Shown piece after piece: positions 4,521-59,639 of a stretch of 64,000 bases of DNA (position 1 is its first letter; each line of letters opens with the position of its first letter). The DNA lies in the NCBI GenBank assembly GCA_951406725.2, contig OX597821.1, positions 11,656,001 to 11,720,000 on the forward strand, given 5' to 3'. The stretch comes from Octopus vulgaris (Eukaryota). The position numbers and the translations under genes are program-made. The notes beneath the pieces are model-generated. The model had not been told where the DNA came from. It worked only from the letters and a program-made list of their open reading frames with translations, and did not search any database.

Positions 4521-4574
4521 CTTTAGCAATGTCAACGGAATATCGGTCACTGCTAAGATTCCTTAAACAACAAA

Positions 4575-5345
<771 letters not shown>

Positions 5346-10740: not shown

Positions 10741-11403
10741 TTGTCACTTCAATATGGCTGTTCCGTATGAAACTACATTACTACCATATTTTTTTTAATC
10801 AAGGAGAATATCTTCTCCAGCTCGTTAACGACACAACCTGTGTCCGATATACTGCGATCAGAGTGGTCACTGATTCCGTCAAACTGCTAGATGGTGGTTG
10901 TTCGCTTCCCAGTTTGCCATATATCGGACACAGGTTGTGTCGTTAACCAGCTGGAGGAGATATTCTCATGGGGTTAAAAAAATTGCAGTAACGTAGTTCC
11001 ATACGGAAGAGTCATGTTGAAGTGACGACAAACATTACTTTCCAATATTGTTATTACTTACATCTCTTATAGAGATTTAGAACTAGCTACGTTGCTTGCT
11101 GCAAGATTGGCGGCTGAATGTCGCTTATTTTACTATGTATTGCGAGCTAGGACGAACGACAGCCATTTCTAGCAGACAAGTATCCAGTACTGAGGAAGGG
11201 AAATACCCTGAAACCAGAATGGTTTACGGGTCCTGTCAAACCGGTAGATGGTAGGAGTTCGCTTCCCAGTTTGCTATATATCGGATACAGGTTATTTCGT
11301 TAACCAGCTGGAGAAGATATTCTCCTGGAGTTAAAAGAATGGCAGTAACGTAGTTTCATTCGGAACAGCCATGTTGAAGTGGCGACAAACATTACTTTAC
11401 ATT
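10741..11403 (+). mobile_element. Retrozyme-like element 1: ~356-nt tandem unit (~1.5 copies) preceded by an inverted partial copy
   Basis: gtcaaac..tagatgg..gttcgcttcccagtttgc at ~10878 and ~11236. 10741-10852 is the reverse complement of ~10920-11030. Contains an HHR. Confidence 0.8.
11184..11230 (+). ncRNA. Type I hammerhead ribozyme
   Basis: ccagta-CTGAGGA-aggg(aaata)ccct-GAAA-cca(gaa)tgg-TT-tacggg. Core intact, all three helices pair, GUU cleavage triplet. Confidence 0.85.
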
Positions 11404-11941: not shown

Positions 11942-12026
<85 letters not shown>

Positions 12027-12181
12027 CAATAAATGGTGGGGTTGTATTGACCGCACGTGGAGAAATGATAGGCAAAGAAAAATTGTAAAAAAGCAGAATG
12101 CTAAGTCGAAAGAAAATTTTAATGAAAATGGGTGTATGGAAAATTTTGAAAAATTGATAAAATATATATATATTAATTCAG

Positions 12182-12230
12182 AAATATGGAACGCTTCACG
12201 AACTTGCGTGTCATCCTTGTGCAGGGGCCA
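12182..12230 (-). pseudogene. U6: U6 snRNA 3'-half fragment
   Basis: Reverse complement tggcccctgcacaaggatgacacgcaagttcgtgaagcgttccatattt matches the U6 3' half. 5' half (ACAGAGA box) absent. Confidence 0.9.
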
Positions 12231-12272
12231 CGCAAGGATGACACGCAAATTCGTGAAGCGTTCCATATTTTT
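12231..12272 (+). pseudogene. U6: U6 snRNA 3'-end fragment
   Basis: cgcaaggatgacacgcaaattcgtgaagcgttccatattttt matches the conserved U6 3' end, including the oligo-T. Confidence 0.92.
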
Positions 12273-12372
12273 GAATTAATATATTTTATCGATTTTTAAA
12301 ATTTTCCATATACCCATTTTCATTAAAATTTTCTTTCAATTTAGCATCCTGCCTTTTTACAATTTTTCCTTG

Positions 12373-12408
<36 letters not shown>

Positions 12409-12462: not shown

Positions 12463-12534
<72 letters not shown>

Positions 12535-12700
12535 TTGTTTGGTAAAGCACGTGGGTGAATATATAAGAAAATAGTAAAGTGTGAAAAAACGACAGAAGGC
12601 TTAAATGTTAAAAAATATATATATTTGTGTCAAAATGTTTGGAGAATATTGGAAAAATTTTTTTTCCTTTCCTTAAAATGACATAATTTTAAAATTTTTA

Positions 12701-12740
12701 AAGAAATTACCGGTTTCGCGTGTAGCTTTTCAAATTTCTT
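12701..12740 (-). ncRNA. Minimal hammerhead variant (U3-A8 core), left arm
   Basis: Reverse complement aagaaat-TTGAAAA-gc(tacac)gc-GAAA-ccgg-TA-atttctt. Helix I is 7 bp and helix III is palindromic. Confidence 0.65.
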
Positions 12741-12924
12741 GTGACGTTATGTTTATATTGCATGGAGTTATCGTTGTTTTTATTTCCAGGAGATTTCTGA
12801 ATAAGGGGAGGTAGTGAGTTATTTATTCCGGTGTAAGGGAGATAATCGCTTAAAATTTTTTTTTTTTTTTTTTCCCTTTTCCTTGTTTGGGAAAATTTCT
12901 CTGTGTCAGTATGTTCGGATGGTT

Positions 12925-13484
12925 ATATACTTCATAAAAACCCAAAATTAAAGGAAATTCTAAACATACACCAAATCATTAAAAGCTACAAACAGCCTAA
13001 ATCACTTAAAAAGATTCTCACAAAGGCAAAATTGTCTTCTAAAATTACGGATGCAAAAGTAAAAAAATGTGGTAGATCGAACTGTGCAACATGTCCTAAC
13101 CTATTGGAAGGATCAGAATTCTTCTTTAAAGAGGGACAGAAATTTAAGATCAAATCTAACTTTACTTGTGCCTCTGAAAACATAATTTATGTTATTAAAA
13201 GCTCGGGCTGCCACCAAGACTACGTGGGTTCCACGGGACTATCACTCAGGCGTAGATGCACACTGCATCGACAACAGATTGCATTCCCAGAATATAGAAT
13301 GATACCTTTTAGTGAGCATATTGAGAAATGCGCAAAGCAACTACTGCCACAATTTTTAATCTTCCCATTTTACCAATGTGCTTTCGGATCATCAACACAA
13401 ATGAGACTGAACAAGGAAACATTCTTCATTGAAAAGTACAAACCCAGACTCAACCATCCGAACATACTGACACAGAGAAATTAA
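12925..13484 (+). CDS. PLE GIY-YIG endonuclease domain (truncated ORF, no RT)
   Basis: KCGRSNCATC Zn-linker, NIIYVIKSSGCHQDYVGST..LRRRCTLHR, RLNKETFFIEKYKPRLN. Open frame. Confidence 0.88.
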
Positions 13485-13623
13485 CAAGGAAAAGGGGAAA
13501 AAAAAATTTTTTAAGCGATTATCTCCCTTACACCGGAATAAATCACTCACTACCTCCCCTTATTCAGAAATCTCCTGGAAATAAAAACAACGATAACTCC
13601 ATGCAATATAAACATAACGTCAC

Positions 13624-13663
13624 AAGAAATTTGAAAAGCTACACGCGAAACCGGTAATCTCTT
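13624..13663 (+). ncRNA. Minimal hammerhead variant (U3-A8 core), right arm
   Basis: aagaaat-TTGAAAA-gc(tacac)gc-GAAA-ccgg-TA-atctctt. Confidence 0.6.
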
Positions 13664-13796
13664 TAAAAATTTTAAAATTATGTCATTTTAAGGAAAGGAA
13701 AAAAAATTTTTCCAATATTCTCCAGACATTTTGACACAAATATATATATTTTTTAACATTTAAGCCTTCTGTCGTTTTTTCACACTTTACTATTTT

Positions 13797-13870
<74 letters not shown>

Positions 13871-15473: not shown

Positions 15474-16675
15474 GTTTCTTTATTGGCCACACAGGGCTGC
15501 ACACAGATGGGACAAGTTACAAGGTAGAGCTTTTCTTTTGGGGGATGAAAAAAACAAAAAACAAAAGAAACAAAAAAGGGGTGGCGTAGGTTTTCGATCA
15601 AGAGGGATCGTAAAAGGGAAGAAAAGAACAAAAAAGATATTAAAAAAAAATAAAAATATAAAAAATAAAAATAAAAATAAGAAGAGGAAAAGGGACAAAA
15701 GAAAGGAGAAATGAAAAAAGAAGAAAAAGGGGAAAAAAGGGGAAGAGGAAAAAAAAAAACGATCAATAGGGATCGTGTATCACAGTGTTATGATATATGG
15801 TGTAAAGGGGAAAGCAAGTAAGGTTTATCCGTGGGAAGAAAAGCCTACGAAAAAGACCACAGTAACCTTGGTCAATATTGTTTTATGTTACCACATTTGT
15901 TTGCAAGTGGGTAACCCTCTGTTTTCAATTTCTGGGTTCATAGGATTATGCTCAAGGTGGCTTCGTCATTCATACGTGCCATTCTTGCTACATTCACCCA
16001 TCTTTTTTTAAAACATTCGCTAGACAAAACTTGCCTCTCTACTCTCACTTTCCTTTTCAAGTGGTACTTGAAGACGTTGATGAGAGATTGACCAGAGAGG
16101 AAAGTGTTTGTCTCCAATCCTTTCAGACGCGTCCACCAGATACATTCTTTCGCCATAGCCACAAGGATGATGAAAATAGCTCTTCCTTCCCGTTTGAAGG
16201 AAGGAGGCGTGACAATATTAGCGATAGACTCAGCTGATAAACCGACTCGTCCCACACGTGACAGCAGTTGTTCGACATAAGCCCACAGGTCGGAAATTGT
16301 TGGACACTGCACGAGTGCGTGCAGAACGGTTTCGTCGCTCTGACCACATCTCGGGCAGGTCGGCCCCGTGTTTCTCGAGCCGTGTCTGTAGAGCTTATCC
16401 CGAACGGGTTGCGCTTCTCGGTAGCACTGCCAGGTCAGGGATCTCTGGAAGTTGTCCATGGGCCCTGGTCCGAAAGTCGTCCTGAACAGGCGGGTCAGGT
16501 ACTCCTCGTCAACATCCAGGTTCGCCCCGAGCTCGTCGTCGTACCTCTCCTCCACTAATCCCCTATAGAATGCTTTGGTTGTGTTGAAGTCACTCAAGGT
16601 CGACCCAGGACGGCGGAGTTGCTTGAGAGCAACACGACACTCGCGGTGCCATTCGCCCTTCCTCGGCCTCTTTTT

Positions 16676-16676
<1 letters not shown>
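15474..16676 (-). mobile_element. 5'-truncated Tx1/L1-like LINE inserted in (GATA)n
   Basis: ORF2 C-terminus with zf-RVT (TCPRCGQSDETVLHALVQC), stop at 15938, ~460-bp 3' UTR ending near AATAAA. (GATA)n on both sides. Confidence 0.88.
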
Positions 16677-16740
<64 letters not shown>

Positions 16741-17349
16741 AAGTCAATAAATCATTCGGCAAGCCATCCAAGCACCTACAATAAATACCAGTAAAGTAAT
16801 AAGTTTGAGTTACTCAGTTATTACTCCTTCATCTCCCCTTCCACTTCCTGCCTCTTTCATCCACAACTCCTTCTTTCCTCTGTACATGAAGGGGAAGTGG
16901 GATCAAATATTGCCGGTGTATATAGAAACAGAGGCATATATCATTCTAGGCAAAGTGATACATCACACACAGCCACTCCCTAAAAGTCTCAAATAGGTGG
17001 CAAGCAGCCTAAGTGACTGAATTATTTCAAAATAGCGTTGGAAACAATGGAGCTATTAGCGACAAACAATCAACAGTGACAGCAGCAACGCCAATGGCAG
17101 CAGCACTAACGCTCACACCGGTGTTTCGATGTCATCGCCCCCACTCCTGTCACTCTTGATCCATATTTACATTATCGTTCACTGTCAGTAATACTATCAT
17201 AGTCATAAACAACATAACCAGGCAATAGAGAAGAGGGAATGGTGATGTAGTTGAATTTGGTTTTCGCTGATTAGTGCAAGGTTCTTCATCTTTTACACTT
17301 CTGTACATTACTGACACTGACATACGAACGCGCGCAAGCACGCATACAT

Positions 17350-19772: not shown

Positions 19773-20940
19773 ACGGAGAACTGGCAGAATCGTTTCCACG
19801 CTGAGCAAAAGGCTTTTCGGTATTTCGTCTGCCGCAACGTTCTGAGTTGAAATTCCTCCGAGGTCGACTTTGCCTTTCATCCTTTCGGGGTCGATTAAAT
19901 AAGTACCAGTTACGCCCTGGGTTCGATATAATCCACTTAATCCGTGTGTCTGTCCTTGTTTGTCCTCTCTGTGTTTAGCCCCTTGTGGGTAGTAAAGAAA
20001 TAGGTATTTCTTCTGCCGTTACGTTCTGAGTTCAAATTCCGTCGAGGTCGACTTTGCTTTTCATCTTTTTGAGGTCGATTAACTAAGTACTAGTTACGCA
20101 CTGGGGTCAATGTAATCGACTTAATCCGTTTGTCTGTCCTTGCTTGTCTTCTCTGTGTTTAGCCCCTTGTAGGTAGTAAAGAAATAGGTATTTCACTTGT
20201 CTTTAACGTTCTGAGTTCAAATTCCGTCTAAGTCGACTTTGCCTTTCATTCTTTCGGGGACGATAAATTATGTACCAGTTGCGTACTATGATCGATCTAA
20301 TCAACTGGCCCCCTCCCCCTAAATTTCGGGCCTTGTGCCCGCCTAGAGTAGAGAAGAATCGTTTGTACGCCGGACAAAATGCTTAGCAGTGTTTCGTCCG
20401 TTTCTACATTCTGAGTTCAAATGCCACCGAGGTCAACTTGGATTTACTTTCTTTCGGAAGGGATAAAATATGAACCTGCTGAGTTGGGGGTCAACGTAAT
20501 CGACATTTCCGCTCACCAGAATTTTCAGACCGTGTACCTAAATTTGAAACCGCTATAATTTTCTACTGCAGGTACAAGGACAAAAATTTTGGGGGACGAG
20601 CTAGTTGATTACATCGATTCCAGTACTTAAATATTACTTACTTTACCAACACCGAAAAATCGAAAATGCCACCGAGCATTTTGCCCAGCGTGCTAAAAAT
20701 TCTGCTAGCTTGCTGCCTTAGCATATAATATAATTTCAAATTTTAGCTCAAGGCCAGCAATTTCGGGGGAGGAGTAAGTCAATTTGATCGACATTAGTGC
20801 TCAGCTGCTATTTATTTTATCGACCATGATGAAAAGCAAATTCAACTTCGGCGGAATTTCAACTCAGAACGATAAGACATGAAATATTGTTAACCATTTT
20901 ACTCAGCACGGCATCTGTTCTGTTTGCTCGTCGTCTTTTT
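19773..20940. mobile_element. Cluster/tandem array of SINE family B (Meta/MESC-like core)
   Basis: Four + units of gttctgagttcaaattcc..gaggtcgactttgcctttcatcctttcggggtcgat..aagtaccag at ~180-bp period, then two degenerate - copies. Confidence 0.85.
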
Positions 20941-39014: not shown

Positions 39015-39075
<61 letters not shown>

Positions 39076-39203
39076 CTTATAAAATAAGGGCAAAAGAAAA
39101 ATTCTGATGCCAAATATGCCGAAAAAAGACAAAACTGTCAATAACCATTATAATTTATGCGTCCCGAAACAAGCTGATAGAAATTTCTAAAAAAATTCCG
39201 TTA

Positions 39204-39264
39204 TTACCGTATTGGTCCCAATTTCGGTGTTAATTCATAAGAAGTTTTCCCTCCTCAGCGATAA
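39204..39264 (-). ncRNA. Type I hammerhead ribozyme
   Basis: Reverse complement ttatcg-CTGAGGA-gg...cc-GAAA-ttgg(ga)ccaa-TA-cggtaa. Confidence 0.75.
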
Positions 39265-40006
39265 ATACGTAAGACATAAATGTGATACTTACTCATACCC
39301 ATTGAAAAAGCAAGCACTAAGTCCTGAGTGGACCTAAGAACCCTAAATATATCCAAAATAGAAAATCTTCAGCACATCTCGAGGCACGTGCGATTCGAAC
39401 TAGAAACTTTCACAGAGTGAGAGAATCCGAAACTGAACACAATTAAATTTACAACTAATGTAAGATATAATTTTTTTCGGAGAAAAATTTTATCAATGGC
39501 CAGCATATCAAAAAATACCTTTAAAGGTTAAATTTATAAATAACTTATAAAATAATGGCAAAATAAAAATTCTAATGCCAAATATGCCGAAAATAATACG
39601 GTAATAACGGAATTTTTTAGAAATTTCTATCGGCTTGTTTCGAGACGCATAAATTATAAGGGTTATTGACAATTTTGTCTTTTTTCGGCATATTTGGCAT
39701 TAGAATTTTTATTTTGCCATTGTTTTACAAGTTATTTATAAATTTAAATAAGGTATTTTTTGATATGCTGGCCATTGATAAAAATGTTTTTCGAAAAAAA
39801 TGTTATCCTACATTAGTTGTAAATTTAATAGTATTCACTTCCGGATTCTCTCACTCTGTGAAATTTTCTAGTTCGAATCACACGTGTCTCGAGATGTGCT
39901 GAAGATTTTCTATTTTGTATATATGTAGGGTACTTAGGTCTACTCAGGACTTAGTGCTTGCTTTTTCAATGGGTATGAGTAAGTATCACATTTATATCTT
40001 ACGTAT

Positions 40007-40067
40007 TTATCGCTGAGGAGGGGAAAATTCTTATGAGTTAATCCCGAAATTGGGACCAATACGGTAA
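40007..40067 (+). ncRNA. Type I hammerhead ribozyme
   Basis: ttatcg-CTGAGGA-g-ggga-a-aattc(ttat)gagtt-aa-tccc-GAAA-ttgg(ga)ccaa-TA-cggtaa. AUA triplet, cleavage predicted after 40061. Confidence 0.85.
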
Positions 40068-40284
40068 TAACGGAATGTTTTTAGAAATTTCTATCGGCTT
40101 GTTTCGGGACGCATAAATTATAAAGGTTATTGACAATTTTGTCTATTTTCGTCATATTTGGCATTAGAATTTTTCTTTTGTCCTTAATTTATAAGTTATT
40201 TATAAATGTAACCTTTAAAGGTATTTTTTGATATGCTGACCATTGATAAAATATTTTTTCGAAAACTTTTTATCCTACATTTGT

Positions 40285-40329
<45 letters not shown>

Positions 40330-51321: not shown

Positions 51322-53263
51322 AATAAAGTTGTTGGATCAAGTAATGAAGGTCACGCAGAGCATCATAGCCCAACTAATTAGGGAGAGAGTCAATTAAGAT
51401 GGGATGCAGTTTAGGTTCGTACCAGGGAAAAGCACCACTGATGCTATGTTTCTGGTAAGAAAGTTGCAGGAGAAATACCTAGCCAAAGATAAACCTCTGT
51501 ACCTGGCTTTCGTTGACATAGAGAAAGCCTTTGACAGGGTCCCCCCATTAATTATCTGGTGATCAATCAGGAAACTAGGGATAGATGAATGGTTATTGAG
51601 AGCTGTGCAAGCCATGTACAGGGATGCTGTCAGTAAGGTGAGGATTGGCAACGAGTACAATGAAGAATTCCGGGTGGAGGTAGGGGTCCACCAAGGTTCA
51701 GTCCTCAGCCCCCTCTTATATATCATAGTCCTCTAGTCAATAACAGAGGAATTCAAGAAAAATTGTCCCTAGGAGGTACTCTATGCTGATGACCTTGATC
51801 TAATTGCTGAGTCACTAAGCGAGCTACAGGAGAAGTTTCAGGTGTGGAAGCAAGGATTAGAATCGAAAGGCCTTAGAGTCAACCTAACTATAACCAAAGT
51901 CCGAATAAGTAGGAAGGCAGACAAACCACAAATCCCTACAGGTAGATGGTCCTGCTCAATCTGTAGAAATGGCGTAGGTAGAAACTCTATAAGATATACC
52001 CAGTGTAAGCTATGGACACATAAGAGGTGCAGCAATATCAAAAGAAGGCTAAATGGGAAGATAGTTTTTGTATGTGGCAGATGCGCAGGAGCAATAAACA
52101 CTGAAAATGTGCAGAGAACAACTTCCGCCACATCCCAGGGAGAAAAACTAGAAGTAGTTGATAGCTGCCGTTACCTAGGTGAACAAGTCAGTAGCGGTGG
52201 TGGGTGCAATGAAAGAGTAGCTGATAGAATAAGAATAGCCTGGGCAAAGTTCAGAGAACTCTTACTTCTGCTGGTGACAAAGGGCCTCTCGCTCAGAGTA
52301 AAAGGCAGACAGTATGACGCATGTGTACGAACAGCCATGCTACATGGCAGTGAAACATGGGTTGTGACTGTTGAGGACATGCGTAAGCTTTCAAGGAATG
52401 AAGCCAGTATGCTCCGCCGGATGTGTAATGTCAGTGTGCATACTCGAGAGAGTGTAAGTACCTTCAGAGAAAAGTTGGACCTAAGAAGCCTCAGATGTGG
52501 TGTGCAAGAGAGACGACTGCGCTGGTCTGCTCATGTGGTGAGAATGGATGAGGAAAGCTGTGTGAAAAAGTGTCACACCCTAGCGTTTGAGGGAACCTGT
52601 GGAATAGGTAGACCCAGGAAGACCTGGGATAAGGTTGGGAAGCACGGCCTTCGAACATTAGGCTTCAACGAGACAATGACTAGTGAGCGAATCTTATGGA
52701 GATATCCTGTGCTTGAGAAGACCCGGCAAACCAAGTGTGCCCATAACCCGTGCCCTATGTCAGGGTGTAACTAGCCCACTTATGCGTAACTTTCCTTCAT
52801 TGGACACTAAACTCTGCTTGCAAAGACTTTTTGAGGCAAGTGAAATCGAAATCGAAATCAAATTCGGTGACTAGCATGCGTGCTAGTAGAGCGCTAAGAG
52901 CACCATCCGAGCGTGGTCGTTGCCAGAGCAGCTGACTGGCTTCCGTGCCGGTGGCACATATAAAGAACCATTCGAGCGTAATCGTTACCAGCGTCTCCTT
53001 ACTGGCACTTGTGCCGGTGGCACGGGAAAATCAACATTCGAGCGAGGTCGTTGCCAGTGCCGCTGGACTGGCTTCAGTGCAGGTGGCACGTAAAAGCACC
53101 CACTACACTATCGGAGCAGTTGACTTTAGGAATGGCATCCAGCTGTAGAAACTCTGCCAGATCAGATTGGAGCCTGGTGCAGTAATCTGGTTAGCCAGTC
53201 CTCAGTCAAATCGTTCAACCCATGCCAGCATGGAAAGCGGACGTTAAACGATGATGATGATGA
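51322..53263 (+). mobile_element. 5'-truncated RTE-clade LINE (RT pseudogene plus 3' UTR)
   Basis: QFRFVPGKSTTDAMF..LYLAFVDIEKAFDRVP, GVHQGSVLSPLL, LYADDL, AMLHGSETW, GRPRKTW. In-frame stops. 3' end ggacgttaaac(gat)n. Confidence 0.93.
52875..53100 (+). repeat. ~65-bp tandem hairpin repeats in the RTE 3' UTR
   Basis: cgagcg..tcgttgccag-N9/10-ctggc..gtgccggtggcac at ~52908, 52974 and 53038. Confidence 0.8.
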
Positions 53264-57287: not shown

Positions 57288-59460
57288 AAATAAATACATG
57301 GAGTTGAACGAAAGTGTTAACAAAATTCCTTTACTCTCGACATATGTTTCGGAGACAACATGGTTTTATTCCAAAGGAATAAACGGTTTAAGATGCAATC
57401 TTCTCTTCAGGAAAGAAAGGGAGCCTCTCTCAACAACAAGACATTATAACAATTACGATGACTGCCTACATGGTAAACAAAACGTTAATAAGTGTTTTAA
57501 AAAAACCGTTAGTAGAATTGACGTCAAAGTTCGATAGTAGGAAGAGAAGGGTTAAAGGAATAATAAGTAGGGAACAAATAGAGAGGGAGGGGTACGTTGA
57601 TTAAGAGAATATTCAAAGGTTTCGGAAAGAATTTCTCTATTGAAGTGGAGTGCACGTTAAACTAATTGTTCAAACTATAATGACTATCGAAATCATTTAT
57701 ATGAGTAAAAAGTATGTTTCTGCCAGTGTTTACATTTGTACGATTTCTCTATAAGTGTGTTTACAAGGGGATTCTTAGAAAAGAGAATATGGAAGAGTTC
57801 AGAGTTGCAAATGTTGCAAAATCTCCTGCCCTTATCAAAAGGAAAGGATACAGACAGTATGAACCAATCTAACTTAAAATCTATATTATTGTCTTTAAGA
57901 TGCCAAACTAATTTACTTAGCCCTGTACTATGTCGTTTTTTTACTATCCCTAAATGATGAATAATGGTTTGAAATTCTCTTGTATAACTGGGAAGTGGAC
58001 GCACCTATATAGAAGAAGACATCGGTACCGGAAGAAATTTTACACTGGTATATAGAATTCTTAATCTTAGAATTATTAGACAAAAATTTAATTCTGTTGG
58101 GGTTGTCCTCCGAGATCGAAACGAAATTTTTATTGCTATGATTGTTGTTACTATTATTATTACCACCACTAACAACACTATTCTTATTATTATTAGTATT
58201 ATTATTGATAATACAACTAATAATACTATCAATAGTAATACCGTTATTATTATTATTATTATTAACATTACCATTGTTATTAACACGACTATTACTATTA
58301 TTATTATTAACATTGTTATCACCATCACTATTATCATTAATATTATTATTAATACTATTCTTATTATTATAATTGTATGAGGGGTTGGCATTAGCAAGAT
58401 TAATGCTGGAACTCCCGGGTGAAGAACCTTTATTTAGCGGCTTGGTATTTTGAGAAGATATAATTTGTGAAAGATTTCTAGTGTTAGAGAAAGCGATTCT
58501 AACTATGTGGGAATTGATAATAGAATAATATCTAGAATTTTTGGGAAAGTTCTTAGCAACAGCTTGACGGAACTGCAAGAGAAGGTTCGATTTAATTTGT
58601 TTTCCGAAAGGGATTACGAACCAGTGACTTTTGAATTGTACGTAGTGTTATGTGTAAAAGTAGGGAGAAATTTCTGGGTTGGGAATTTAGGGTTAAATAG
58701 CGCTTACTTCCCCTGGTCCGTAAAGAATTTATATTATGTATTGGGCTACTTACACTATTAGAATTAAAATCACAATTCCTATTACAAATATCTATTTTAT
58801 CTGGAGAAGCAGATGTAGGTCTAGAATGAGCAGAATCGATATATGACACTTTCTCTTTATAGCCAGCTTTTAACAAGGCGGCGTTATAGAAGTCTGTCAA
58901 CGTAGGCAGATAATTTAGACAGTCTAAGAGATATGTTTTTGACTAAGTTATCGGTAACTACCCTAGCGTGATTACTGTAAAGATTTGTGGAAGGTTTATG
59001 ATATGGGAAGTATGAGTTATTCTGTAAATTGAGGATGATGTCTAAGAAGTTGGCTTTAGTTAACTCATCGCCAAAAACGATGCGCAAGCCCATTCCATTA
59101 AAAAATCTAACTAATCTATTCTTAACCTTCTGTATTTTTTTATTTGAAATGTTTTGGAGGTAAAGCAGACAATCGTCGCGATAAAGACCTCCGCAGATGT
59201 CCGGGAACTGGTCTGCCATTTCGTAAAGAATATATATTCGACCAAATCGGCTATCGGGGCGCTGTCTGTACTTCCCATTAATACATCAAACGCATTAGGG
59301 GTATCACTGCGGACCCACAACTTGCTATCGAACTTGATGAATGATTTCCTAGCAGTCAGTATCACATTAATTTTCTTCCCTAGAGAGGCCTGCCTTATTG
59401 TGTGCGTGCCATAGTGCCATAGGGCCTTATTAAGTATATTAGTATTAAGTATAATCGTAT
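57285..59460 (-). mobile_element. 5'-truncated, frameshifted Penelope-like element (RT plus GIY-YIG) in (TA)n
   Basis: RT motifs LMGSTDSAPIADLV, GGLYRDDCL, NFLDIILNL, YHKP. EN motifs SIYQCKI..FYIGASTSQLYKRISNH and CNICNSE..KCKH. HHR in the 3' terminal region. Confidence 0.92.
57334..57415 (-). ncRNA. Type I hammerhead ribozyme in the PLE 3' terminal repeat
   Basis: Reverse complement ctttc-CTGAAGA-gaaga...tttattcc(ttt)ggaataaa...tctcc-GAAA-catatg-TC-gagag. GUC triplet and palindromic helix III. Confidence 0.82.
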
Positions 59461-59467
59461 TATATAT

Positions 59468-59639
59468 ATGAAAAAAACAAAAGACGAAGATAGGTGGTGT
59501 ACAAAACAAACAGGTGTATTAGTATAACGCTCAGGAATAGAAAGTCTTTTACGTTTCGAGCCTACGCTCTTCTACAGAAAGGGACACAGAAAAAACAAGG
59601 AGAGAAAAAATGTGTGTAGTGGCTAACGATCTATCATGG

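Follow-up and report, generated by a model that had tools for sequence, protein, structure and literature searches.

The window analysed here is a microsatellite-rich stretch of 64,000 nt on contig OX597821.1 of Octopus vulgaris, whose genome measures 2.8 Gb in 227 contigs. Within it, a non-coding unit with a predicted hammerhead ribozyme lies in two head-to-head arms between (TA)n repeats, and the arms meet close to the position at which the ribozyme is predicted to cut. The question raised by this locus is whether the junction is a genomic footprint of self-cleavage in vivo, as a preliminary description of the sequence had proposed, or whether it arose by another route. Our analysis favours another route: the window copy belongs to an abundant family of non-coding hammerhead retrozymes that are likely copied in trans by a Penelope-like enzyme, by way of priming at two sites on one multimeric RNA.

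Architecture of the insertion

The features of the insertion are listed below, with unit positions numbered from the first base 3' of the predicted cut (u1, at 39599 and 40062).

39015..39074, no strand: (TA)n microsatellite of 30 copies (period 2), left half of the likely target
39075..39595, minus strand: minus arm, running from about u82 to 463 and on to about u142; stops at the short 3' site and abuts (TA)n
39196..39272, minus strand: minus-arm hammerhead, core from 39258, predicted cut after 39210, likely damaged
39594..39599, no strand: head-to-head junction, with a 1-nt overlap at 39595 and the cut-homologous position at 39598/39599
39595..40287, plus strand: plus arm, u460 to 463, 1 to 463 and 1 to about u222; stops at the long 3' site
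39599..40061, plus strand: one full 463-nt unit from cut to cut, folding z-score -2.0
39975..39986, plus strand: 12-mer resembling the sequence upstream of U6 genes, 11 of 12 letters
40007..40067, plus strand: type I hammerhead, predicted cut after 40061
40201..40287, plus strand: 'tail' extension of about 80 nt between the two 3' end sites, missing from the end of the minus arm
40287..40329, no strand: (TA)n microsatellite of 21.5 copies, right half of the likely target

The head-to-head arms hold about 1.1 copies of the unit on the minus and about 1.5 copies on the plus strand. The preliminary description had given these numbers for a unit of about 465 nt between (TA)n, and they were borne out with a unit of 463 nt and flanks of (TA)30 and (TA)21.5. 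It had also let the plus arm start at the scissile junction, which proved not to be the case: the arm begins at u460/461, which lies 3-4 nt before the cut, so that the entire A-U-A triplet is retained, and the description's own text places the four letters aata ahead of its cut bar. Over 461 nt the two arms show 92% complementarity and thus differ by 8%, the local GC content is about 0.29, and the 463-nt unit contains no open reading frame of at least 130 aa. Because both flanks consist of (TA)n, a target-site duplication is unreadable at this copy. With one complete hammerhead per arm, the window copy is likely a dead end, whose read-through transcript would form a long hairpin.

A dispersed family of 463-nt units

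The window element has many relatives: the 16-mer at u88-103 has 3,696 exact matches in the genome, as opposed to 0 for its reversed control. The copies are dispersed and mostly under one unit long, head-to-head arrangements make up about half of the sampled insertions (151 such pairs versus 164 unpaired arms at the sampled loci), and long arrays of the unit were not seen among the sampled insertions. Full units measure 444-508 nt (27 arms) and fall into several subfamilies; a minority of the other arms span two complete hammerheads. The window element is an ordinary member of a non-autonomous retrozyme family that is likely mobilised by Penelope-like elements, and the Penelope-type inverted architecture that had been proposed for it is supported both by the window copy itself and by the 151 pairs.

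At a few loci (L144-L146 at C10:29.16-29.19 Mb, and L344) the unit sits inside larger local tandem duplications with periods of about 4.7 kb and about 960 bp, which represent passive amplification. L144-L146 were considered as a candidate autonomous partner and rejected, as they form a segmental tandem. A 12-mer at 39975-39986, which is conserved in most subfamilies, matches 11 of 12 letters of a sequence that precedes U6 genes by about 58 nt, a score that is equalled by 17 of 200 shuffles and so lacks significance; it is a possible snRNA-type promoter element.

The predicted hammerhead

The cut at 40061/40062 that had been predicted beforehand falls within a type I fold at 40007-40067, the helices of which covary across the family. 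The fold comprises stems I, II and III of 6, 4 and 4 bp, the triplet AUA, the core CUGAGGA at 40013-40019 and GAAA at 40046-40049. The best structure that keeps all three helices has an energy of -14.3 kcal/mol and lies 3.8 kcal/mol above the minimum of -18.1, and Rfam returned no hammerhead model match for the 463-nt unit at E<=10. In the minus arm, stem II is down to 2 bp.

The hammerhead core is at least 95% conserved across copies and intact in 178 of 240 of them; the exception is position 7 (G 0.38, C 0.37, A 0.17), where free variation is compatible with hammerhead chemistry. Compensatory changes are found in the pairs 414/1 (G-C 166, A-T 62; 244 copies) and 424/445 (G-C 115, A-T 107, G-T 19; 251 copies), tallies that represent copies rather than independent events and to which a few subfamily changes contribute most of the signal; at 454/459 the two positions can pair in just 68% of the copies. 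Because of these compensatory changes in its helices, the predicted ribozyme is likely to have been functional in the source lineages.

Paired 3' ends

The arms of this family end at two preferred sites. Among 466 arms, 378 end in one of two windows, u125-156 (short, around u142) or u200-245 (long, around u222), so that the two 3' end sites are about 80 nt apart, and 298 of these 378 standard ends run directly into TA repeats. In 97 head-to-head pairs both ends are standard, while in the other 54 of the 151 pairs one or both ends lie elsewhere, which places them outside this count. Ninety-two of the 97 pairs combine a long with a short end, 5 are short and short, and none is long and long. Since unpaired arms include 73 short and 61 long ones, about 50% of the pairs would be expected to combine long and short if the two arms ended independently, and the observed excess has a P of about 2e-22. 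The window element obeys the rule, and so do 11 of 11 pairs of an ORF-bearing element (scored by eye), 8 of 8 pairs of a second family (family X) and 3 of 3 chimeras of U6 snRNA with a third (family Y), all of which are described below. The 3' end sites of the autonomous element and of families X and Y coincide, by eye, with short TA-like runs, a hint that base pairing to the cleaved (TA)n target might assist priming.

At the other end of the arms, where the two meet, sequence overlaps occur at 85 of 151 junctions, no clear excess over the 149 of 299 synthetic blunt joins, and blunt junctions are fewer and filled junctions more frequent than in this control.

Template of the two arms

The two arms of a pair resemble each other more than they resemble the rest of the family. 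In 62 scoreable pairs the identity between arms is 94.7% versus 89.7% to other loci, and 62 rare alleles are common to both arms where 5.3 would be expected. Private alleles are shared between arms at a rate of 0.20, in shifted register at 0.16 and between adjacent units at 0.14, all of them far above the rate of 0.013 between loci, which indicates that both arms derive from one source variant. The sources would so have passed through near-monomer bottlenecks or have been young homogeneous tandems. Counted against a single template is that shared alleles could also reflect later gene conversion or two RNAs of one dominant source.

A monomeric circular RNA, produced by hammerhead cleavage and ligation and copied by rolling reverse transcription, might be the usual template; this is compatible with priming at two sites, and we regard it as possible, though less likely than not. 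Such a circle would account for arms that read through the cut and for arms longer than one unit, and circles have been reported for other animal retrozymes in the available text of PMC7229834. It also agrees with the similarity of adjacent units within one arm, which equals that between the two arms of a pair (94.2% versus 88.9% in the control; 97 arms), with the elevated rate at which such units share private alleles, as given above, and with the equal overall similarity of same and shifted registers (94.1% and 93.8%). The same family-wide pattern, however, would be yielded by a young homogeneous tandem source. Seven private alleles are informative on this point: 3 occur in every unit and 4 are limited to a single register, the latter at the window copy, L025 and L193, where a monomeric circle would need later conversion. 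At the window copy, u113 and u121 are both A in the upstream unit of either arm, but both are C in the terminal unit; because the variant letters shared by both upstream units are absent from the terminal ones, a monomeric circle is a poor fit here, and the pattern speaks for a linear or multi-unit template, or for later conversion.

It is unlikely that the arms stem from two separate RNAs and owe their likeness to a dominant source or to gene conversion of the inverted arms after insertion. Inverted repeats can convert each other, the arms of 6 of the 92 long and short pairs are assigned to different subfamily references, and only one fifth of the private alleles is common to both arms. Unshared private alleles are, however, expected from mutation after insertion, and adjacent units in direct orientation share private alleles at a similar rate to the arms, unlike what conversion within a hairpin predicts. 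Furthermore, the same rare U6 junction is present in both arms of four head-to-head chimeras (see below), which supports copying of one RNA twice. We retain a single multimeric RNA as the likely template of both arms.

5' ends in relation to the predicted cut

Had the plus arm terminated where a self-cleaved RNA begins, the junction would be a footprint of cleavage in vivo. At the level of single loci some observations agree with this: the window junction lies no more than 4 nt from the cut-homologous position, the arm at L033 starts exactly at the cut, and that at L297 starts one base past it. The window plus arm, however, retains the triplet that should depart with the other cleavage product. 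The locus L033 (1439-1720) carries a near-identical junction in an independent insertion, with a minus arm from u83-84, a plus arm from u1 and a 4-nt filler.

The 5' boundaries of other copies were compared with the cut in three samples of arms, each anchored independently of the 5' ends. The first, 88 arms from 90 of 172 exact matches to u1-16, can reveal ends at the cut or upstream of it but none downstream; L033 is the only arm in it that starts exactly at the cut, and the nearest other starts are at -7, -10 and -10. The second consists of 83 arms from 88 u88-103 anchors taken in chromosome order, 51 of which reach the cut; none starts at the cut and one starts at -3. In the third, which relies on anchors placed in upstream units (101 out of 133 matches, with one local duplicate removed), 41 arms reach the cut and the ends nearest to it are at +1, at -4 (the window copy) and at -5. 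Taken together, 5 of 180 arms at risk end near the cut, whereas 9.6 are expected from the flanking rate, and 2 of 180 end within 1 nt of it as opposed to 2.8 expected, with an upper 95% bound of 3.5%. There is no excess just downstream of the cut either (2 versus 5.05 and 7 versus 8.12 expected), only 1 of 84 companion arms ends inside an 11-nt window at the cut, and a scan over 300 arms found 3 ends at -2 to +2 compared with 5.75 expected. Most arms read straight through the cut, and 5' ends occur at a nearly constant rate per base. An exact pattern, which misses diverged copies, gave 0 matches for a U6 fusion at the cut of the 463-nt unit.

The reading of the junction as a footprint of self-cleavage, for which a random distribution of boundaries in other copies had been named as the counter-evidence, is already refuted at the family level above about 3.5% of the arms, and we consider it very improbable for the window copy. 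Its 5' end is ordinary among the family, its closeness to the cut is then a coincidence under the explanation that we prefer, and the junction should not be cited as evidence for ribozyme activity. Of the proposed origin from a self-cleaved multimeric or circular RNA, the multimeric template is supported, whereas the junction as a product of cleavage is not. The missing peak of 5' ends is not evidence against cleavage in vivo, because circles and uncut multimers both predict read-through.

Several other accumulations of 5' ends were considered along the way. A pile-up at u51 was mostly an artefact of using a single reference for several subfamilies and shrank with more references; the interval around it, +46 to +52, is still the only window that survived correction for the scan (P 0.01), and we treat it as a likely mapping artefact because it lies on a subfamily indel. 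A hint of ends shortly past the second cut, seen in 5 of 7 long arms, did not recur among 100 arms sampled for this purpose. An accumulation 36 nt upstream of the cut was rejected as a transcription start (10 versus 5.7 expected, P 0.065); in fresh samples it amounted to 1 of 30 and, by eye, 3 of 100 arms.

Two further origins of the inversion can be dismissed with more confidence. Twin priming of the LINE type, or fold-back of the cDNA from a single 3' end, would produce a head-to-head junction with short overlaps or fillers like those seen here, but LINE twin priming leads to one standard 3' end and to non-overlapping parts, whereas in this family each arm terminates in (TA)n at a standard 3' end of its own and shares sequence with the other arm, and arms that mostly begin at different unit positions speak against fold-back; we consider such an origin highly improbable. 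An assembly artefact is of negligible probability: no public contig bridged the exact junction, which is uninformative in a repeat, but similar joints are present in contigs of two other public runs, the arms have different end sites, 151 pairs exist at other loci, and arms that are only 92% complementary cannot be the fold-back of a read.

U6 snRNA joined to Penelope-like tails

A second head-to-head insertion in the window may bear on ribozyme cleavage more directly.

12024..12375, no strand: chimera of U6 snRNA and the Penelope-like tail of family X, head-to-head; oligo-T of U6 joined at 12272/12273, one long and one short tail

Both arms of this insertion contain the 3' part of U6 (Rfam U6, 43.6 bits). 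The join is located at the predicted cut of the minimal hammerhead of the parental elements, whose triplet UUU leaves an ambiguity of 3 nt, and an identical join is found at a second locus of family X (L279/L390). In an unbiased search for U6 3' ends, the matches listed (100 of 433) represent 71 distinct ends, two of which belong to loci with a Penelope-like tail, in both cases that of family Y. With a directed pattern, able to find only X and Y junctions, 6 family Y loci (L385-L389, L392) and 2 family X loci were recovered, with five T at each junction. In family Y the five T are joined exactly after the GUA triplet of the parents (L394-L417), with no microhomology. Three of the family Y chimeras are head-to-head, with both arms chimeric and with one long and one short tail. 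The parents of families X and Y are located downstream of remnants of reverse transcriptase and endonuclease genes at some loci. Because L387 and L388 share an odd duplication of the U6 5' part and may not be independent, the chimeras represent a minimum of two events, one per family.

The junctions resemble the chimeras of U6 and LINE-1 described in PMC6789731, in which, according to the available text, a U6 end with about five T is placed on a 5'-truncated retroelement and then retrotransposed. They differ from these in two respects: the partner is a Penelope-like tail, and the join has a constant position, at a predicted hammerhead cut, while the L1 junction varies in that account. For the U6/L1 chimeras the same text describes how RtcB joins a 2',3'-cyclic phosphate to a 5'-OH. 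A predicted hammerhead cut at the join of families X and Y would be a natural source of such a 5'-OH, and by analogy our findings fit a ligation of the cyclic phosphate of U6 to the 5'-OH of the hammerhead product. Judged from their sequences, the U6 fusions are therefore likely a better candidate than the window junction for a fossil of in vivo cleavage by related ribozymes; if this is true, they represent genomic evidence for in vivo cleavage by Penelope hammerheads.

Nine other odd 3' flanks of U6 contained no short tail with (TA)n within 260 nt. Most dispersed U6 3' ends (C1-C3, among the matches listed) are followed within a few bases by other short repeats that start with a GGCG-like word, which suggests either the target preference of another retrotransposon or U6/SINE chimeras. 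In addition, two tandems of U6 with U6 (L455, L456) and a cluster of U6 genes at C1:139.42 Mb (L380-L384) were observed.

Autonomous relatives and other elements

Shortly downstream of the family X chimera, the window also contains part of an element with coding capacity.

12531..13799, no strand: 3' portion of an autonomous Penelope-like element from a young family, in head-to-head arrangement; GIY-YIG endonuclease at 12846-13484 and minimal hammerhead at 13631; one of its tails is long, the other short

The family of this element (L217-L246, L351-L354) is very young, as all 150 of 150 scored copies are at least 99% identical over 144 aa. It has an intact frame of 869 aa for a reverse transcriptase-endonuclease and an overlapping upstream frame of 492 aa, carries a minimal hammerhead of the U3-A8 type, forms 4-kb head-to-tail tandems, and is a ready candidate for work in vitro. 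The presence in the genome of young, intact elements with reverse transcriptase and GIY-YIG domains and with the same architecture was counted in favour of a Penelope-type explanation for the 463-nt family. Among the elements compared, no autonomous partner with the 3' end of the unit emerged, a point that counts against this explanation: the similarity between the 3' UTR of the young element and the 3' end of the unit was not above that of shuffles (58 of 200), and the other endonuclease remnants examined, from a genome with 17,804 candidates, had no matching tail.

Apart from these elements, a simple scan found hammerhead-core-like motifs at 11190 (plus strand) and 27066 (minus strand) of the window. 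Decayed frames at 57928-59518 (minus strand) include GIY-YIG-like and RT-like words with no convincing Pfam match and possibly represent another Penelope-like clade. Remnants of LINE elements are located at 15938-16813 (minus strand; zf-RVT match, E 1.7e-7) and 51773-52774 (plus strand; weak RVT_1 match), and we take 4557-5018 (plus strand) to be a C-terminal LINE-like frame. Tandem repeats are present at 19819-20287 (period 184 nt, 2.5 copies) and 52904-53095 (period 66 nt, 2.9 copies).

A model for integration

The inverted architecture, the paired 3' ends in (TA)n, the common source variant of both arms and the lack of an excess of 5' ends at the cut are observations, from which we infer the class of the enzyme, its cutting of both strands, the use of a single RNA molecule and the end-joining of the cDNAs. 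A Penelope-like reverse transcriptase/endonuclease, probably acting as a dimer, would cleave a TA microsatellite on both strands, and each cut strand would prime cDNA synthesis at its own fixed internal site on one RNA. Both cDNAs would stop at random and would then be end-joined head to head, giving rise to the central junction. The ribozyme would probably serve to process or circularise the transcripts, and its cut does not define the boundaries of the insertions.

A broader proposal, which we consider evenly balanced, is that Penelope-like elements in this genome, autonomous elements and passengers alike, integrate by asymmetric double priming on one RNA; hammerheads would cut in the germline, their product would have been caught by U6 ligation in two families, and uncut or circularised RNA would be the normal template.

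Comparison with known systems

A literature search from whose coverage most subscription journals are excluded returned no paper on the 463-nt family, on a strict pairing of long and short ends combined with a common template, or on fusions of U6 to the cut of a Penelope hammerhead. Fig. S2 of PMC11167929, which concerns genomic ends, may bear on the novelty of the long and short pairing. The comparisons that follow refer to the available portions of the cited reports.

Like the metazoan non-LTR retrozymes (PMC7229834; 10.64898/2026.07.22.740005), which have been proposed to be moved by Penelope-like elements, the family described here has a non-coding, AT-rich unit with a predicted type I hammerhead and occurs in partial head-to-tail tandems. 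Unlike those retrozymes, it consists of dispersed copies, mostly of less than one unit, and about half of its sampled insertions have a head-to-head arrangement with fixed paired 3' ends. Li et al. define an 'active' retrozyme by at least two consecutive complete hammerheads (10.64898/2026.07.22.740005), and the window copy falls outside this definition because it has one complete hammerhead per arm. The strict pairing of its ends and the shared template link an animal retrozyme to the Penelope machinery by the footprint of its insertion and not by co-occurrence.

Insertions of Penelope-like elements with an endonuclease (PMC8557442) resemble the window copy in their inverted 5'-truncated arm, partial tandem, one-ended tail and microsatellite target. 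Unlike such an autonomous element, the 463-nt unit lacks a reverse transcriptase/GIY-YIG frame and would work like a non-autonomous passenger. The minimal hammerheads of Penelope-like elements include a variant with a U3-A8 core (PMC4209133), and families X and Y and the autonomous element are like the elements in that report, with a U3-A8 core and a palindromic helix III. The 463-nt unit differs from these minimal hammerheads in its standard C3-G8 core and its longer, non-palindromic helix III, and it could fold as a monomer. Pairs of hammerheads located 100-700 bp apart on opposite strands have also been described (PMC4209133). Both the route to tandem and inverted insertions of Penelope-like elements and the cutting of their hammerheads in vivo are stated to be open in the available text (PMC8557442, PMC11167929, PMC4209133), and the 463-nt family matters here as a data set for their integration.

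The closest experimental parallel is PAc (Poseidon), which in purified form cuts and extends both strands of an AT-rich target from two internal start sites (PMC11167929). The enzyme is a predicted dimer, its insertion is independent of hammerhead cleavage, and no reads end at the cut according to the same report. Initiation by PAc takes place without homology to the target, whereas in the elements studied here short TA-like letters are found, by eye, at the start sites. In addition, the available account of PAc in vitro gives no difference between strands in the choice of start site, whereas the two sites are mutually exclusive between the arms of the genomic pairs in this study. The pairing of a long with a short end, together with a template shared by both arms, represents a sharp prediction for an in vitro system that already exists.
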